This document shows, in pieces, positions 18,701-27,453 of a DNA stretch of 28,432 bases. The stretch's first letter is position 1. The number at the start of each line of letters is the position of its first letter. This DNA comes from a virus. Taxonomy: Duplodnaviria; Caudoviricetes. The stretch lies in IMG/VR virus record IMGVR_UViG_3300032190_000018, positions 1 through 28,432 of that record; one strand, 5' to 3'. A program made the translations under genes and the position numbers. A model generated the notes under the pieces. It saw only the letters and a program-made list of their open reading frames with translations. It did no database searches and was not told the DNA's origin.

Positions 18701-19056
18701 AAACTTTCTACATTAATCCCGATACCGGTGACCTGGAATTTGACGGCCAGAACAATATTAAAATGGTTGAGGGCATCGAGGAAAAAGTACAATCCATGCG
18801 GCTTTTGTTCAGTACAAACCGTGGTGAATTTTTCTTAAACACCGGCCACGGTTTTGATTTTACCTACCTGCAGCAGAAGGCTCCGAGCATGGCCCGGATA
18901 ATGCTGGAGGTATACCAGACAGCCAAGCAGGACCCGCGGGTGAAAGAGGTCTATGACATATTTCCGGAGTTCGACAGGGCAACGCGCAAGTTAAAGGTGC
19001 CGTTCAAGGTACTGATGGATGATGGGAGTGTTGTTGAGAATGAGGTGAACGTCTAA
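18697..19056 (+). CDS. sheath initiator/baseplate gp25-like protein (DUF2634-like)
   Basis: TGDLEFD, TNRGEFFLNTGHG, DPRVKEV. Confidence 0.8.
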   Translation: MKTFYINPDTGDLEFDGQNNIKMVEGIEEKVQSMRLLFSTNRGEFFLNTGHGFDFTYLQQKAPSMARIMLEVYQTAKQDPRVKEVYDIFPEFDRATRKLKVPFKVLMDDGSVVENEVNV

Positions 19057-20258
19057 TGCCTTTTGGTTTAGGACCTGACGGCTTCACTCGTAAAAAGTAT
19101 GCGGATATAGTGGCCGACATGGAGGCCCGGGCCAGAAATCTTTTTGGTGAAAACGTAAACCTGTCCGAGCGCAGCCCGCTCGGTATTTTTATTAAGATTA
19201 TTGCCTGGAGCATTGCTCTGCTCTGGGAGCTTGCGGAAGCGGTGTATTATTCAGCTTTTATTGATACTTCTGAGGGCACTTCTCTTGACTATGCCTGTAA
19301 ATACGCTGGTATAGCACGAAAGCCAGCTAAAAAGGCCAGCGTAACACCAAGTGGCGATCCGGCGTATGTAAAATTTACAGGAGATGCGGGGACTACAGTT
19401 GCCCAAGGAAAGCGGGTCGCAACCGAAGACGGCGTTGAATTCGAGACACTAGAGGAAGTCACCCTGGACGCCGCTGGCGAGGCATACCCGAAAGTACAGG
19501 CGGTCGAGGCCGGGGAGCAGGGCAACGTGCCGGCCAATACAATTACCGTCATTATAAACCCGCAGGCTGGATTAAGCAGCGTAACTAACCCGGAAGAAAT
19601 AACCGGTGGCCAGGACGAAGAGACGGACGCAGAATTGCGGCAGCGCTATTATGATTCCCTGGCCAAGGGCGGCAGCTCGACTGTGGAAAGTATAAAGGCA
19701 GCGCTTTTGGAAGTGGATGGAGTAAAGGACGTCGTCATAAACGAAAACGACACTATCAACACCGTGGACGGGATACCGCCCAAGTCATTCGAGGTGCTTG
19801 TATACGGCGGAACAGATAATGATGTGGCGCAGGCAATATTCAATTCCAAGTCTGCCGGCATACAAAGCTATGGCAGCACAACTGTGGACATTACCGATAG
19901 CATGGGCAAGGTGCACACCATAGGCTTTACCCGGCCCATATTCAAGGATATATATGTGGATGTCACACTAACTACCAACGAGAATTTCCCGGTTGACGGC
20001 AAAACCCAGGTACAGACCGAAATTATTAAATACATCGGCGGTACTGACGCCAACGCGGAAGCTCATGACGGCCTGGGACTGGGCGAGGATGTCATACATT
20101 ACAAGGTCATCGCGGCCTGCAGTAACGTGCCGGGCATTACTGATTTGACCGTGCAGATAGGCTTTGCTGCAGATGCCCTTGGTACGGCCAATTTGGCTAT
20201 AGCAAGCAACGAGGTGGCGCAGACCAATACCACTAAAGTTACGGTGACGGTGGCTTAA
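19056..20258 (+). CDS. baseplate J/gp47-family wedge protein
   Basis: GLGPDGFTRK, EGTSLD, GEQGNVPANTI, GGQDEETDAELRQR, AQAIFNSKSAGI, IGFTRP. Confidence 0.93.
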   Translation: MPFGLGPDGFTRKKYADIVADMEARARNLFGENVNLSERSPLGIFIKIIAWSIALLWELAEAVYYSAFIDTSEGTSLDYACKYAGIARKPAKKASVTPSGDPAYVKFTGDAGTTVAQGKRVATEDGVEFETLEEVTLDAAGEAYPKVQAVEAGEQGNVPANTITVIINPQAGLSSVTNPEEITGGQDEETDAELRQRYYDSLAKGGSSTVESIKAALLEVDGVKDVVINENDTINTVDGIPPKSFEVLVYGGTDNDVAQAIFNSKSAGIQSYGSTTVDITDSMGKVHTIGFTRPIFKDIYVDVTLTTNENFPVDGKTQVQTEIIKYIGGTDANAEAHDGLGLGEDVIHYKVIAACSNVPGITDLTVQIGFAADALGTANLAIASNEVAQTNTTKVTVTVA

Positions 20259-20273: not shown

Positions 20274-20897
20274 TTGACTCAGTACAATGCTTATTTGAAT
20301 AAGGACAAGGCCGGCAAGCTGACTTCCGCGATTTATGTTGACGGGGTTGGCTGGGTTAATTTGGTGCAGAATTACGCTGTAACAGCTGGCGGGCTGCTGG
20401 TCCCGCTAAAAAGCGCTGGCGATGGGCGGCTCCTGGGGGACGCAAATTTGCAGATAGGGGATGCGGATGTTGGAAACACCAACCCCGTGCCGGCTAAAAT
20501 CGTGGACGCGAACGGGAACCCGGTGCAGTTGGTTGATAACGGGGATGGGACATATAGTATTCCTGCACGTATATTAAACGCGGTAGATACTAAGCCGTCG
20601 GATAGAGGGGCGCAAAACGTAGATATCTGCAGTGCCGCGGACACGTCTGGCGGAGTGACTGCAGCGCTCGGTAACTATAATCAGGCTACACTATATCTCG
20701 AATCTGCTGGGAGTATAAAGCTCACTGTGGAAGTATCACCTAACGGGGGAACGGACATATACGAAATACTTGAAAGTCCAATCATTTTAGATGCAGGAGA
20801 AAAGGTTGCGTATCCTTTTACCTATAAGGCGAACTGGATAAAAATAACTGGTTCGAATACATCGGCTGTTACAGCTAAAATACGGGGTATTTATTAA
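20274..20897 (+). CDS. putative tail/baseplate appendage protein with AT-richer C-terminal beta domain
   Basis: AAAGGAGG RBS with TTG start; Gly/Ala/Thr/Val-rich; NTNPVP and DNGDGTY motifs. Confidence 0.65.
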   Translation: MTQYNAYLNKDKAGKLTSAIYVDGVGWVNLVQNYAVTAGGLLVPLKSAGDGRLLGDANLQIGDADVGNTNPVPAKIVDANGNPVQLVDNGDGTYSIPARILNAVDTKPSDRGAQNVDICSAADTSGGVTAALGNYNQATLYLESAGSIKLTVEVSPNGGTDIYEILESPIILDAGEKVAYPFTYKANWIKITGSNTSAVTAKIRGIY

Positions 20898-20922
20898 CGC
20901 TAATATTTAGCGTTATTTATTT
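20895..20922 (+). terminator. hairpin plus U-tract
   Basis: TAACGCTAA-tat-TTAGCGTTA followed by TTTATTT. Confidence 0.6.
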
Positions 20923-20939
20923 TTACGGAGGTGTGTAAA

Positions 20940-21791
20940 ATGCCCGGAAGAAAATATAGTGTTCATTTCAATCAGAGCAAGTTAGGAGCTGGAGGCACGG
21001 CTGAATTCTTCCCTAATGCAGATACTTGGGTTAGCCCGTCAGCTAATTTGGGTGATGCAGGAGTTATTTTAACAACCACACCGCTGGGAGCAGATGCAAG
21101 TTACACCCAGGATTCACAGGATAGACTTGCACCGACTATGGAAGGGGATGTTTTCGCGTTCCCTGTGGGCAGTGTCCGTGGCCTGGTATGGGCCGACCAG
21201 GCCGGGACTTTGTACCTGGAGCAAAGTGACGATGATGCGGTATGGGAAACTGTTGCCAGTGTAGCCGTGAGCGCAAATACTACGACAGAACTTGACTGGT
21301 CTTCACTTTCTAAACGCTGGTATCGCTTTAGGTATGTTAACGGAGGGGTTGCTCAGGGTAGTTTTGTTTTAATTCAACAGGTTTCCGGGTTGGCGGTAAT
21401 TAAAACCAATACTAAGCTAACGGGCAGTTCACTTCAAGATTCACAAGCTATTCCTACAAGCAAAAAGCAAGCCGATGTATTAGCAAATGATGAAACCGGC
21501 ACAGTTACAGTTTTAGCTGGTGCGGTAAAAGGTTTAAATGATTATGTTGATTCTAGAAAATATTCAAAAATAACAGCACAAATACAATGGGATGCGGCAA
21601 TATCTCATAAGTTATATATAACTAGGCGCTCTAGTGGACAAACCATGACTTATGATGATGATACGGTTGATGTGACGCAACAAAAGACAATGAAAGAGTT
21701 TATAATAAAAAATGCAGAGTCAAGGATATTTGTTAAAAATAACGATGCTTCAGACCACACAATTAAATACGATGTATTGGGGTGGTACTAA
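20940..21791 (+). CDS. putative tail appendage protein; C-terminal ~120 aa encoded by a repeat-bounded cassette
   Basis: GGAGGTG RBS, ATG 20940; beta-sandwich-like N-half (ADQAGTLYLEQS, RWYRFRYVNG); composition shifts after NTKLTGS. Confidence 0.7.
   Translation: MPGRKYSVHFNQSKLGAGGTAEFFPNADTWVSPSANLGDAGVILTTTPLGADASYTQDSQDRLAPTMEGDVFAFPVGSVRGLVWADQAGTLYLEQSDDDAVWETVASVAVSANTTTELDWSSLSKRWYRFRYVNGGVAQGSFVLIQQVSGLAVIKTNTKLTGSSLQDSQAIPTSKKQADVLANDETGTVTVLAGAVKGLNDYVDSRKYSKITAQIQWDAAISHKLYITRRSSGQTMTYDDDTVDVTQQKTMKEFIIKNAESRIFVKNNDASDHTIKYDVLGWY
21409..21423 (+). repeat. candidate recombination site, left copy
   Basis: ATACTAAGCTAACGG, 13/15 identical to 22006-22020 in direct orientation. Confidence 0.6.
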
Positions 21792-22006
21792 TGACATTAG
21801 ATGAAATAAAAAATACCTTGCCAATAAATGAGTATGGCAATGTTTATATGGAACTTTTTGATTGTGAAATCCCACCAGAAGATTTTTTGGCGCGCTTTAA
21901 AGGTGCTGAATTAGCCTGTGCCTCGTTATCTGCTCATGTAAATGCTACACCTGGCTGGATACAGCAATTTGAAAAGTGGAGAGATGATGGGATTATCCCT
22001 GCTTGA
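21791..22006 (+). CDS. 71-aa acidic hypothetical protein (possible fibre chaperone/partner)
   Basis: TAATG overlap with the upstream gene, GGGGTGG RBS; stop overlaps the right repeat by 1 nt. Confidence 0.65.
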   Translation: MTLDEIKNTLPINEYGNVYMELFDCEIPPEDFLARFKGAELACASLSAHVNATPGWIQQFEKWRDDGIIPA

Positions 22007-22020
22007 TATTAAACTAACGG
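22006..22020 (+). repeat. candidate recombination site, right copy
   Basis: ATATTAAACTAACGG at the cassette stop codon, about 220 nt before the recombinase. Confidence 0.6.
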
Positions 22021-22075
22021 TGCCGCGCTAGCACAGGAAGAAAATTTAAAAATTTTCACTGGACACCTGCCCAGC

Positions 22076-22126
22076 AGAACAAATGTTTTAATTTGACGGC
22101 GCAAATGACGCATGGTATGGTATAAT
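22076..22126 (+). promoter_or_regulatory. LexA(SOS)-like box plus sigmaA promoter of the recombinase
   Basis: AGAAC-AAAT-GTTTT (22076-22089) resembles Firmicute CGAAC-RNRY-GTTCG. TTGACG (22093-22098) is 17 nt before TATGGT, and TG-n-TATAAT occupies 22118-22126. Confidence 0.55.
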
Positions 22127-22128
22127 GT

Positions 22129-22232
22129 AAGCAGGCTAGGCCGGCGTCGCGAACCGGCCGAAAGGCGCACCTGGAGGCGCTGCCTGCTTCTATCATCTCC
22201 AGGACCAAAAATACCTTGCTCCAGGGAGGTAT
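22129..22232 (+). ncRNA. structured 5' leader (three-way junction plus SD-sequestering hairpin)
   Basis: Stems AAGCAGGC/GCCTGCTT, GGCCGG/CCGGCC and GCGC/GCGC with loop ACCTGGAG. Two CTCCAGG complements lie at 22197-22203 and 22219-22225; ATACCT/AGGTAT stem covers the SD. Confidence 0.6.
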
Positions 22233-22238
22233 CATATC

Positions 22239-23078
22239 ATGCGTCTCTCCGAAGCATGGGAGGCCTATGCCGCGGACAAGCGGTTACTTGGCTATTCCCC
22301 TCACACTTTACGCGCCTATCGTTTACAATCTACCCTTTTAATTCGGCACCTCGGAGACATTGACATCCAAGAAGTCACGTTTGAACAGCTAAAAAAGTAT
22401 CTTGCAAGTCAGGAGCACCTTAAGCCTGCGTCAATCGGTCATCGAGTTCGCTTTCTTAAGTCACTTTTTAAGTGGGCTCACGATGAAGGCTTCATAACTG
22501 CAAACCCGGCATCAAAACTCAGGGAACCTAAAATGGGTACCAGGCTTCCGAAAGCACTTTCAGAAGAGGATGTTGAATTGCTTCGGGAGGCCTGTGAAAC
22601 ACCACTGGAACATGCCCTTATTGAATTCCTTTATACTACCGGCTGCCGGATTGGTGAGGTGGCCAGACTAAACCGGAATGCCATAGACTGGGAAACCAGG
22701 TCTGTGGTGGTTCGGGGGAAAGGCGATAAGGAGCGGGAGGTTTATTTCACTATCAAATGCGGCATATGGCTAAAGAGATATCTAAAACAGCGTAAAGACA
22801 ATGATGTGGCCCTATTTGTTACGGAACGAAAACCTCACCGTATGAGCATTGCCCAGATCCGATATATAATAAAGCGGGTGGCAAGGCGGGCGGGGATACA
22901 AACCAGCGTTTACCCGCATAAACTCCGCCACAGTTACGCCACACACCTGCTTAACAACGGGGCGCCGCTGGAAGGAATTCAAACCTTGCTTGGGCACTCG
23001 AAGCTGGAGACAACACGTCTATACGCCCAGTTGTCCGGCCCCCGGCGCAGAGAATTTTATCAAAGATACTTTAGATAA
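22239..23078 (+). CDS. XerC/D-like tyrosine recombinase
   Basis: N-terminal SAM-like domain (YSPHTLRAY, NPASKL); complete catalytic set TGCRIGE (R), GKGDK (K), HKLRH (HxxR), LGH, TRLY (Y); GGAGGT RBS. Confidence 0.95.
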   Translation: MRLSEAWEAYAADKRLLGYSPHTLRAYRLQSTLLIRHLGDIDIQEVTFEQLKKYLASQEHLKPASIGHRVRFLKSLFKWAHDEGFITANPASKLREPKMGTRLPKALSEEDVELLREACETPLEHALIEFLYTTGCRIGEVARLNRNAIDWETRSVVVRGKGDKEREVYFTIKCGIWLKRYLKQRKDNDVALFVTERKPHRMSIAQIRYIIKRVARRAGIQTSVYPHKLRHSYATHLLNNGAPLEGIQTLLGHSKLETTRLYAQLSGPRRREFYQRYFR

Positions 23079-23108
23079 CCACCATAACCACGGTGGTTAT
23101 TGTTTTTT
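23075..23108 (+). terminator. intrinsic terminator after the recombinase
   Basis: ATAACCACC-ataaccac-GGTGGTTAT followed by TGTTTTTT. Confidence 0.75.
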
Positions 23109-23122
23109 GAGGTGGTGCATAT

Positions 23123-23776
23123 ATGGCCGACGACCAAATACAATCGCTGGACATGGGCAATGAAGAGGGCGGCAATTACTCCTATACAATCTTAGACGGG
23201 ATGCTTGCCCGGCTGCCCAACCTTTTCGCAAAGACCGGCATTAGTAACATCGGCAAACTGTTCGACCTGGCCGCATCGGAACTTGAGGATCTCAAAATCG
23301 CATTCCGGACCATCCGGCAGTACCGGGACATCGACCAGGCCATCGGAGCAACGCTTGATCGAATAGGGGAAAACGTACAGGAAAGCAGGGGCCAAAAAAG
23401 CGAAGACCTGTACCGGCAGTTCATCAAGGCGAAGATCCGGGCCAACTTATCCTCGGGCGACATTGAAACCATCAATAACGTCGCCCGAGTTTTTGTTGGC
23501 GACAATTACGCCGGCCTGGAAGAGCTCTGGAACTTCGGTGGCAAGTATTACAACACGGAACCGGCCGGGATACTCTTGAAATTCTACGATACAGAAGAAA
23601 CCTACATTATCCCCTATGAAGCAATGGACCGGGTTGTGGCAGCCGGGGTAAAAGCTCTATGGGAAATGACGCACAGGACAAACGAGGTGCAACTGGAAGG
23701 CAGCTACGCGGCCTACGATCTTATATACCCTTACTGCGGTACTTTTTACGCCGGGCAGGAGCTTGGAGGGTTGTAA
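23123..23776 (+). CDS. baseplate wedge 2 protein (DUF2612/P2 gpI-like)
   Basis: RDIDQAIGATLDRIGENV..R, YRQFIKAKIRANLSSG, VVAAGV motifs; this family normally follows baseplate J. Confidence 0.8.
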   Translation: MADDQIQSLDMGNEEGGNYSYTILDGMLARLPNLFAKTGISNIGKLFDLAASELEDLKIAFRTIRQYRDIDQAIGATLDRIGENVQESRGQKSEDLYRQFIKAKIRANLSSGDIETINNVARVFVGDNYAGLEELWNFGGKYYNTEPAGILLKFYDTEETYIIPYEAMDRVVAAGVKALWEMTHRTNEVQLEGSYAAYDLIYPYCGTFYAGQELGGL

Positions 23777-24085
23777 ATGCTATATCTCACGGACACGGCG
23801 CTTAATAAAATCGCACTTTATTTACAGAGCATCCTCGACCATGGTTTGTACTACCAGAACGGCGTCCCGACGCAGATACCAATTTATGATTCAGAGGTAA
23901 GCGGAGATACAATAACAATTTACCTGGAGCTTGATGAGAACGTCAGCGGGGACATAGAAAAGCTGGAGGTAATAGACACCGGTGGCGCGGTGCTAATTGA
24001 AAAGGCAAAGACATTTAATAAGGTGTTGGGCAAAGGGCTCCTTGTGAGCTTCACCTTTAGCGTAAGAGAGGTGGAAAGTAGTTGA
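23777..24085 (+). CDS. small baseplate/tail-collar protein
   Basis: GGAGGG RBS; beta-rich 102 aa between wedge and fibre genes. Confidence 0.6.
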   Translation: MLYLTDTALNKIALYLQSILDHGLYYQNGVPTQIPIYDSEVSGDTITIYLELDENVSGDIEKLEVIDTGGAVLIEKAKTFNKVLGKGLLVSFTFSVREVESS

Positions 24086-24986: not shown

Positions 24987-26084
24987 ATGCCTATTAGCAT
25001 TCCTGAGTCTGAAAGAAAAGGATTGTCGTCTGACATTGTAGTGCCTCACGGAGCGAGTATCCCTACTTACGGAAGCGCTATGGCAGTTGCCGAAGTTGAT
25101 GGGATTATATATTTTATTGGAGGATATAACAGGGATGTCCAATACTCACAATTAAATGAAGCCTATGACCCGGTAACGGATACTTGGACAACTAAGGCGC
25201 CGATGCCTACGGGCAGAGAATTCTGCAAAGCTGGGGTGATAAATAGTAAGATATATGTTTATGGTGGTTATAACGGTGCTTATTTAGGTACTCTTGAAGA
25301 ATACGATCCAGCAACAAATTCTTGGACATCTAAAACAGGGGCCACCGCAAGGTATCAATTTGCGCTATGTGTGTTAAATGGCGTTCTTCACGCATTTGCA
25401 GGACATGATGGTTCGGCTGCCATCACGACACACGAAATTTACGACCCAGTTACAGATACCTGGACATCAAAAGCTCCATATCCGCAAGCATTTTATGACT
25501 TAAGTGGAGCAGCAACAGATACAAAAGTATATGGATTTGGTGGTATAGCTGCTAACGGCTATGGAAGTGCTCTTTGTTATGAGTATGACCCGTCGAGCGA
25601 TACTTGGGCTCAAAAAGCGGACATGTTAAAACAGGCTTATGGAGCAGAAGCAGTTGAATTGAATGGTTTAATATACGTTTTAGGCGGACATTATGGATCA
25701 GGTACTGCATATGATGATGTTCAAATATATGACCCGGCGACGGATACATGGGAATATGGAGTGGAAATGCCAACTGCGAAGTTCGATTTTCATGCAGTAG
25801 TTTCCGGACAGAAAATATACTGTTTACAAAAAGGTATTCCATATAGTCTAGAAATATTTGACCCTGAAAAAGTAAATACTGTTGAGCTTATAAGAAGCGA
25901 TAGTAATGTGATAGTTAGCATTACGAAAACACCTATACCGTTAGAAATATACGATATTGACGGCTTGGTGGGTACTTATGATGTAGGTACTTATGGCCCT
26001 TTCGTGGGGCCGGTTACTGTTAAAGTCCCTAAAGAGAGGGCATGGTCTAGAGCGAGTACCAAGGCCGCAGTTGTTTTATATTAA
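24987..26084 (+). CDS. Kelch-repeat beta-propeller protein, candidate receptor-binding tail protein
   Basis: About six repeats of IY(F/V)xGG...YDPxTDTW (e.g. IYFIGG/YDPVTDTW, IYVYGG/YDPATNSW, IYVLGG/YDPATDTW). Confidence 0.88.
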   Translation: MPISIPESERKGLSSDIVVPHGASIPTYGSAMAVAEVDGIIYFIGGYNRDVQYSQLNEAYDPVTDTWTTKAPMPTGREFCKAGVINSKIYVYGGYNGAYLGTLEEYDPATNSWTSKTGATARYQFALCVLNGVLHAFAGHDGSAAITTHEIYDPVTDTWTSKAPYPQAFYDLSGAATDTKVYGFGGIAANGYGSALCYEYDPSSDTWAQKADMLKQAYGAEAVELNGLIYVLGGHYGSGTAYDDVQIYDPATDTWEYGVEMPTAKFDFHAVVSGQKIYCLQKGIPYSLEIFDPEKVNTVELIRSDSNVIVSITKTPIPLEIYDIDGLVGTYDVGTYGPFVGPVTVKVPKERAWSRASTKAAVVLY

Positions 26085-26629: not shown

Positions 26630-26812
26630 TTGAATACAGATGAACGCCTGGCCATCCTGGAATCGGAGGTGGCCCATTTGAAAACGCGCGATCAGCAGCT
26701 AAACGGTAGCATCCAGAAGGTCGAAGCCATGGTGTGGAGAATGTGCCTCGGGCTTTTCGCGGTGATGGGCGGCGTAATAGCCACCTTTATTGCCGTGGTG
26801 TGGGAAAAATGA
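26630..26812 (+). CDS. XhlA-like/holin-like membrane protein
   Basis: AGGGGGTG RBS, TTG 26630; coiled coil (ERLAILESEVAHLK) followed by one C-terminal TM helix; first gene of the lysis cassette. Confidence 0.7.
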   Translation: MNTDERLAILESEVAHLKTRDQQLNGSIQKVEAMVWRMCLGLFAVMGGVIATFIAVVWEK

Positions 26813-27453
26813 CTACTATACTTGCCATCGCGCCGGTCATAGTCCTGCTGGTGTATTTCTATTGTCAAGATCGTTACGACAAAGAGCCTTTGTCCAAGCT
26901 TGCCGAGGCTTTTTTTGTTGGTATGATCGTGGTGTTACAGATTCAGTACCTACAGGACCTCTTACTCGACATCAGCACGCACATAGCATGGCAGGCTTTT
27001 ATTGTGGCGGGCCTGGTTGAAGAAGGCATTAAGCTTATGGCATTAAGATTCACCATTTACCGGGACAAACACTTTAACGAGCAGGTGGACGGCATTATCT
27101 ATGCCGTTTTTTTGGGCCTTGGTTTTGCCTTGGCCGAAACAATTGTCCTATCAGTTGACCATTCAACCAGCATTGTCCGGGCGGTTACCGCTGTCCCGGC
27201 ACATGCCATGTTCGCCTGCGTGATGGGCTATTACCTGGGTAAGTACAAATTCCACAGTAAAAGAAACCTGCTAGCTTACGCTTTATTTGTACCTGCGGTT
27301 TTACATGGGGTATATAACTATCTCTTGATGTGCGGCCATACCTGGGCGCTGATTTCGTTTGTACCGTATCTCATAGCCCTCTGGGTAATCGGTATCAGGG
27401 ATACGGATATTCACCTGAGAAACTCAAGGTTTAGGAGGAAATCCAATGTTTAA
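26809..27453 (+). CDS. prsW: PrsW-family intramembrane protease
   Basis: ATGA overlap start at 26809; DRYDKEP, AGLVEEGIK (EExxK), DGIIYAVFLGLGFALAE (FxxxE), VPAHAMF, LHGVYN (HxxxN); several TM segments. Confidence 0.9.
   Translation: MTTILAIAPVIVLLVYFYCQDRYDKEPLSKLAEAFFVGMIVVLQIQYLQDLLLDISTHIAWQAFIVAGLVEEGIKLMALRFTIYRDKHFNEQVDGIIYAVFLGLGFALAETIVLSVDHSTSIVRAVTAVPAHAMFACVMGYYLGKYKFHSKRNLLAYALFVPAVLHGVYNYLLMCGHTWALISFVPYLIALWVIGIRDTDIHLRNSRFRRKSNV

Follow-up and report, generated by a model that had tools for sequence, protein, structure and literature searches.

The DNA analysed here is a stretch of 28,432 nucleotides from a virus of the Caudoviricetes (IMG/VR record IMGVR_UViG_3300032190_000018), called the window in what follows, and its subject is a block of genes in which the 3' part of one open reading frame (ORF) and a small gene behind it appear to form an exchangeable cassette, enclosed by two short sites and followed by a tyrosine recombinase gene. 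The window covers the head-tail-lysis region of a myovirus-like phage (prophage) with sheath, baseplate J and wedge genes. The block, at 20274-23078, consists of ORF207, ORF283, ORF71, an RNA motif and the recombinase gene; it is flanked by baseplate J (19056-20258) and a DUF2612 wedge gene (23123-23776), and genes in a tail-fibre-like position start downstream of it, at 24082. The features of the block, all on the plus strand, are as follows.

20274..20897 (+): ORF207, accessory gene heading the block; contains no site.
20940..21791 (+): ORF283, with a XepA-like N-terminal beta-sandwich (residues ~32-151), a linker holding the inner site, and a variable tip of 120 residues.
21411..21438 (+): inner site, with a left arm ending CTAAC, the 6-bp centre GGGCAG and a right arm; read in frame as K-L-T-G-S.
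21422..22018 (+): variable cassette of 597 bp and 36% G+C, holding the ORF283 tip and ORF71; relatives have unrelated DNA here.
21791..22006 (+): ORF71, small passenger gene with an acidic product, overlapping the stop codon of ORF283.
22008..22037 (+): outer site, with AACTAAC, an 8-bp centre and a weak right arm (4/7 bases inverse), directly 3' of the ORF71 stop.
22077-22088 (+): LexA/Cheo-like box, a match to the consensus only.
22093-22121 (+): sigma70-like promoter match adjoining that box, a consensus match only.
22129..22225 (+): int-alpA RNA motif (Rfam RF02996).
22239..23078 (+): Xer-like tyrosine recombinase of 279 residues, without an arm-binding domain and with intact catalytic residues.
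23074..23101 (+): terminator-like hairpin 3' of the recombinase, a pattern match only.

An earlier note on this DNA had drawn attention to a pair of direct repeats, and its description of them is accurate: two 15-mers (21409-21423 and 22006-22020) agree at 13/15 positions, are spaced 597 bp apart and enclose AT-rich DNA (36.4% G+C, compared with 48.6% in the 5' part of ORF283), the left copy lies in frame as Lys159-Leu160-Thr-Gly-Ser163 with 120 residues remaining past LTGS, and the right copy begins at the last base of the ORF71 stop codon, upstream of an intact recombinase. When excision was computed in silico it gave a product of 164 residues, with the short end that the note had written. 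Within the window the repeat is at chance level, with four such pairs in 20901-22240, a mean of 1.45 in Markov shuffles, and at least one pair in 29/40 shuffles of the region; in-window statistics do not single it out, and its significance comes from relatives only. The actual sites extend beyond the 15-mer and are imperfect palindromes of ~28-30 bp.

Evidence that something is exchanged at the inner site comes from proteins that share the N-terminal part of ORF283. Forty-five such homologues were sorted by eye, and 23 of them have the domain followed by a different tail, while in the other 22 the domain is repeated or C-terminal. The junction motif [LVMI][TSA]G[SRN] is present in 21 of the 23 (it is absent in P0020 and P0024), and in 18 of these 21 it lies 22-24 residues past the last conserved motif. 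All 210 pairs among the 21 proteins are related before the junction and 7 are related after it, giving 15 tip groups, and the abrupt switch to unrelated C-termini that had been predicted for this motif is supported; in P0006 and P0008 the N-terminal parts are identical and the tips unrelated. Distinct PBSX-type XepA tails that lack the site served as a control, and all 40 fell into one group; 7 tails carrying a strict site fell into five groups, the strict pattern having missed the site variants in loci L147 and L170.

The same switch can be followed in DNA. In one phage population of eight loci (L104-L106 and L183-L187), the 400 nt upstream of the core are 99.75-100% identical, and downstream of it identity drops to 21-42% (ungapped, over 100 nt) in 20 of the 21 pairs that could be compared, with six tips in seven loci, L187 stopping at the site. 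Within this population, L104 exceeds L184 by 156 bp, in frame and flanked by two inner-type sites, with 480/487 bases identical beyond. A cassette that is 97% identical from the inner core onward is joined to differing anchors in L222 and L329, L314 and L326 match at 91% as far as the inner core and then once more, at 95%, past the recombinase, which L314 lacks, and L227 and L228 are 100% identical over 1,121 nt from the outer core onward. Of the internal ends of alignments, 18/89 and 22/194 coincide with a core in both of the aligned sequences, the two sets overlapping.

The sites are also tied to the recombinase family. Among recombinase relatives, the first 22 viral loci showed the word (A/C)ACTA(A/T)CG repeatedly, in frame in an upstream gene and again just before the recombinase. 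Distant tyrosine recombinases served as the control for a strict core, after removal of duplicates and of loci with less than 1 kb upstream (7 from the family, 9 from the control); a strict core within 750 nt upstream was present in 16/31 family loci and 0/26 control loci, and in frame in 12/31 and 0/26, which upholds the earlier pairing of repeats and recombinase. The family loci hold 39 cores on the plus strand and 3 on the minus strand in 112 kb (4 and 0 in 98 kb of controls), a looser pattern gives at most one minus-strand core per locus, and no inverted copy of the core occurs within 5 kb upstream in the window, so that the earlier remark on the lack of an inverted spare cassette, unlike Gin, Cin and Rci, holds. 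The core was also found in family loci new to a second scan. With the looser pattern, the 32 loci including the window have an inner site in 21, an outer site in 20 and both in 17; the outer core lies less than 700 nt from the recombinase in these 20 of 32, and at most 20 nt from a stop codon in 18/20. When L[TS]G[SR] was chosen upstream of the recombinase by peptide alone, its leucine codon was CTA in 23/32 motifs, compared with 12/228 for the same peptide in the host genome and 11% of 7,499 leucine codons in recombinase-family loci; on this codon evidence, conservation acts on the DNA word and not on the peptide alone.

In layout, the sites consist of AACTAAC, a centre and a GTTAGTT-like arm, the centre being 6 bp inside genes and 7-8 bp outside them. 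In 17 loci the inner centre has 0-2 bases in common with the outer one, and in 9 of these it has none; L219, whose outer site matches the inner pattern, was excluded from this comparison. A second inner-site type, with the centre TGGTAG, is seen in a separate phage group (L233, L236, L237, L241, L245, L246, L249, L251 and L253), which possibly constitutes a separate exchange pool.

The reading preferred here, with a probability of roughly 55%, is that tip and passenger form a cassette that is swapped between phage genomes by this recombinase family, like site with like site. Because the inner site is in frame, any tip joined there would yield a full protein; in a cell with two phage genomes, recombination between their inner sites would join the genomes, which would then be resolved at the outer sites, or by homology further on, such that one tip replaces another. 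The unlike centres (6 bp inner, 7-8 bp outer) would guard against simple deletion, and the enzyme would often act in trans, supplied by another prophage, a plasmid or a chromosomal array. Tip exchange would vary what the protein binds, an effect on host range being the least certain step. What is seen in the genomes is that breakpoints occur at the inner and at the outer site, that one and the same tip stands on different anchors, and that a unit has been gained or lost between like sites.

The earlier note had also proposed trade between phages, for which these breakpoints and shared tips speak, and had pictured it as starting from excision to a clean short end, for which support is lacking. 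On that account recombination of the inner with the outer site releases the 597-bp cassette as a circle, and the vacated site takes up a different circle, possibly via one strand exchange with little central homology. Its end products are identical to those of like-with-like exchange, which counts in its favour. Tyrosine recombinases acting on double-stranded DNA usually need matching centres, whereas in 9/17 loci the two sites share no central base, and no empty allele was found: none of 20 outer sites has the L-T frame open for 60 codons upstream, and no truncated protein ending at the junction occurs among 50 homologues, that is the 45 above and five single-domain proteins returned by a search for shorter ones. 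With unlike inner and outer centres and no empty allele, fusion and resolution of like with like is favoured over excision. The 156-bp filled and empty pair of L104 and L184 does represent a unit gained or lost, as excision and reintegration would have it, but this sole pair lies between two inner-type sites.

Bacterial chromosomes offer more to the same alternative. In 79 GTDB loci of the same recombinase family, mostly from Bacillaceae, 177 cores were counted in 1.04 Mb, compared with 34 in one Markov replicate. Twenty of the 79 loci have at least three cores on one strand, usually opposite to the strand of the recombinase, and the ORFs between cores in these arrays lie on the core strand in 88/112 cases and opposite to it in 24. 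Arms are 6-8 bp apart in 95/98 array sites with a matching right arm; a 6-bp centre is found in the inner sites and in 47 array sites, and 7-8 bp in others. Such tandem single-gene arrays look built by repeated insertion, their centres vary in length and sequence, and the classes are unordered, an alternating 6/7 order having been looked for in the arrays and not found; this variation suggests that the enzyme tolerates unlike centres. The core of integrons is GTT/AAC, which the arms of the site resemble. These points favour excision and reintegration, against which the enzyme carries no IntI signature, and this route is considered unlikely overall. As a separate observation, same-strand sites in L033, L036, L048, L055, L059 and other GTDB loci separate one to three genes around the recombinase.

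The enzyme is carried by 15 plasmid records. The window's host genome contains 25 cores and no array, and 6/41 related genomes, its own included, match at 1e-60. Among viral loci with an inner site and 3 kb downstream (n=21), a recombinase is present in 4 and an outer core in 9; L302 and L304 are of the kind with both sites and no enzyme of their own.

Several points weigh against cassette exchange by this enzyme. Support for it is comparative, with no recombination observed directly, and its end products are those of excision as well. The motif was first derived from loci overlapping the test set, which makes the comparison partly circular, and kin are not independent; 11/32 family loci have no inner site, and 16/18 site-mapped ends of the 89-end set stem from one population. 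Outer and inner centres share three bases in L219, so deletion is not barred everywhere, and the 6- and 7-bp classes of the arrays follow no fixed order, with varying centres. The inner-site pattern retrieves 32 distinct viral loci, 24 in frame (at a chosen cut-off), with a recombinase nearby in 5, a recombinase match is present in only 2/116 XepA-domain loci, and five site-bearing records are without a family recombinase, one of them rated 100% complete and having only a 24% partial match. In the window, one base of the inner arm departs from the family core, and the right arm of the outer site is weak (4/7). Finally, XepA is reported to be absent from mature PBSX particles in the available part of its description (PMC6834076).

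Given that most carriers of the site are without the recombinase, the enzyme must often act in trans, or is not the agent. The latter would apply if the sites were short-homology hotspots for general phage recombination and the recombinase a passenger once inserted at the outer site, and the backbone that L314 and L326 have in common, with and without the recombinase module, is in keeping with this. Conserved motifs flanking receptor-binding domains have likewise been proposed as hotspots, at 20-95 nt in the accessible text of that work (PMC10408124), compared with a common stretch of only ~10 bp here. The present sites are, moreover, palindromes around a centre of 6-8 bp; they go with recombinases of this family but not with other tyrosine recombinases, and in chromosomes they form oriented arrays around the recombinase, all of which makes hotspots without an enzyme quite improbable.

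The imperfect arms of the window would also suit a relic, in which the sites mark past exchange and are too degenerate to work in this genome. Among sequencing runs, one DNA run and no RNA run was listed as carrying the sequence, and in the contigs of that run no joint or variant was found, a weak negative since assembly drops rare forms. Against decay, the recombinase, the promoter-like site and the RNA are intact and the inner right arm closely resembles array sites; a relic is considered very improbable.

Cassette exchange between like sites, if placed beside the chromosomal loci, could be one side of something larger. Tentatively, and at somewhat less than even odds, one Bacillota recombinase family with its own short site may sustain a phylum-wide cassette economy parallel to integrons, with tandem arrays on chromosomes and plasmids and, in phages of several morphologies, cassette exchange via two incompatible sites, one of them in frame in a virion protein, the enzyme often acting in trans on phages that have retained the sites alone.

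The recombinase itself has a PF00589 domain (E 7e-38) and a SAM-like N-terminal domain, and in alignment it keeps the catalytic set R137, K161, H227, R230, H253 and Y262. It scores below the cut-offs for XerC (211 vs 335) and XerD (201 vs 330), and its match to TIGR02249 (IntI) reaches 105 bits against a cut-off of 265 and is split over two stretches. Upstream of it, the int-alpA RNA is a marginal match (35.9 bits vs a gathering threshold of 35.8). The second loop of this RNA is complementary to two CTCCAGG boxes (22197-22203 and 22219-22225), the second of which abuts the ribosome-binding site. Among 16 loci examined, 14 carry the RNA, and in 13 of these complementarity of loop and box occurs with changed sequence, in six sequence versions (the window, L219-L225, L227-L229, L242 and L244, with L227/L228 and L224/L242 near-identical there), which suggests that loop and boxes switch translation of the recombinase. 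Where the RNA is absent (L218, L230, L231, L240, L247, L004, L010 and L011), a divergent small regulator-like gene was noted by eye upstream, and it is possible that this is a second way to control the same enzyme. The LexA-like box comes ahead of the promoter match in the window and a few relatives, being similarly spaced in L221 and L222 and a looser match in L220 and L249; with the loose pattern found in 5/32 loci, the box is rare, and SOS control is not claimed for the family as a whole.

Some features of the module and its cassettes stand apart from the argument above. As comparison of L314 with L326 and of L242 with L334 indicates, the recombinase module is present or absent right after the outer site, and it starts at this site with 98% identity in otherwise unrelated phages. 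L242 (L016) has two consecutive site-bearing genes and, from 2.4 to 0.2 kb upstream of its recombinase, two tandem genes, much alike, of 354 and 358 residues inside the cassette, to which long passengers in L219 and L104 are related. Residues 55-86 of ORF207 are similar both to the in-frame mini-cassette of 156 bp in L104 and to the linker that precedes the junction in L237.

With regard to the protein that is altered, a profile of ORF283 homologues has PBSX XepA (6i56) as its sole PDB match (E 8e-40), and the modelled N-terminal domain aligns with it over 109 residues (Z 19.9, root-mean-square deviation 1.6 A, 47% identity); the NF047953 score of 108 bits against a cut-off of 400 falls short of a full-length XepA match. 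The AlphaFold model resolves only residues ~42-150, with a confidence score (pLDDT) under 50 in the tip, and the Atlas model, which hints at a beta-sandwich tip and whose features rank XepA fifth at 0.90, is a lead only. No homologue of the tip was found among 58 candidates (155-496 residues) or in 291 loci, and a scan with ORF283 as a single protein gave no match in viral contigs and only two weak matches in phage records. ORF71 has no Pfam, PHROG or NCBIfam match and none in the 291 loci; small passenger ORFs are also present in the cassettes of relatives, and as a guess ORF71 could serve the tip as its chaperone or partner.

Across 20 family loci, the gene that bears the site mostly has no PHROG, its anchors vary, and its neighbours are head, tail or lysis genes; a XepA-like domain also occurs in the site-bearing genes of L233 and L253, and in L251 the tip past the junction matches the C-terminal portion of the PHROG profile of XepA. 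XepA forms a dumbbell-shaped pentamer that is cytotoxic in plate assays, and its authors discuss a role at the capsid vertex, according to the parts of the report available (PMC6834076). The ORF283 product is likely a pentameric accessory of the virion surface or of release. The description of ORF283 as a tail gene with a receptor-binding tip in the earlier note is not supported, given a constant half that is the XepA N-terminal domain and a module that sits beside head, tail or lysis genes; a receptor-binding tail tip may be inferred, being neither shown nor excluded by the data. A main tail fibre was rejected on the same domain and on the presence of tail-fibre-like genes further downstream. 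Among the latter is a Kelch-repeat protein gene (24987-26084), and a PrsW-family intramembrane protease gene (26734-27453) directly precedes the endolysin gene, which is unusual for a lysis module.

If true, exchange of this kind would provide a defined enzyme and site for domain mosaicism in phages, for which chance or short homology is the usual explanation, and a route of diversification needing no stored spares, unlike shufflons; it would also link variation of phage proteins to the integron-like arrays of Bacillaceae. The natural pairs of incompatible sites could serve as a cassette-exchange tool in Gram-positive hosts, and the data suggest that XepA may be one fixed member of a family of variable-tipped pentamers.

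Among known systems, integrons are resembled by the Bacillaceae relatives in their tandem cassettes, which mostly hold a single gene, run on the same strand and each end with a site; further likenesses are AAC/GTT-bearing arms and an SOS-like box in a few loci. The sites are nevertheless ~28-30 bp long, the phage cassette is half a gene fused in frame, and the window has one cassette; the term integron-like used for it earlier is thus apt as a likeness and not for the enzyme, which is not an IntI. Membership of the integrons was rejected on the missing IntI signature and on arms that lie 6-8 bp apart, unlike the long imperfect hairpins of attC with their two arm pairs. The ~11-6-11 bp palindromic plan is that of Xer/dif, in architecture only.

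Assignment to the shufflons and invertases (Rin, Min, Gin, Cin, Rci) was also rejected on the absence of inverted spares, a site within the gene and an adjacent recombinase being present. One of these is the Rin shufflon of Bifidobacterium prophages, in which, as far as the consulted text of that report goes, an armless XerD-like recombinase exchanges spare C-termini by inversion (PMC6109161). Both systems have an armless recombinase beside a structural gene, direct sites within and just after that gene, and a constant N-terminus with a variable C-terminus; Rin keeps two to three spares behind inverted sites and inverts within one genome (PMC6109161), whereas the window system has no inverted spares, uses a different site and has its diversity between genomes. 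In Acinetobacter plasmids, the XerC/D (pdif) sites are short palindromes at which two replicons are fused and resolved, as is proposed here, but by the portion of the account available they are dif-like, surround whole genes and are acted on by XerC and XerD of the host (PMC5790767), and the window has one dedicated recombinase and an in-frame site. The pneumococcal tvr locus, as presented in the excerpted source, shuffles hsdS within one locus through two direct-repeat types, with demonstrated circles (PMC6265443); at the window locus there is no reservoir, and no circle or empty form was found.

Closer to the protein, PBSX XepA and SP-beta YomS share with ORF283 a homologous N-terminal domain and a two-domain plan in the part of the description at hand (PMC6834076), while XepA is without the site and keeps one C-terminal domain, with which the ORF283 tip has no sequence relationship. 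For tailspikes of E. coli phages (PMC10408124), and for Cry toxins, where domain flanks were linked to XerCD by pangenome association (PMC13730063), it has been proposed that conserved DNA at their borders drives the exchange of domains; in the available text of each, the tailspike motifs are longer and have no recombinase tied to them, and the Cry flanks show no comparable site. The Bacillus cereus repeats bcr1-18 are described, in the sections seen of that work, as having TTTAT-linked mobility and no linked recombinase (PMC6199540). No account of this site or system was found in the literature searched, which was mostly without subscription papers and supplements. As read from sequence comparison, the locus is a real and well-delimited cassette system with strong comparative support, which resembles site-specific cassette exchange and is neither an integron nor a shufflon.

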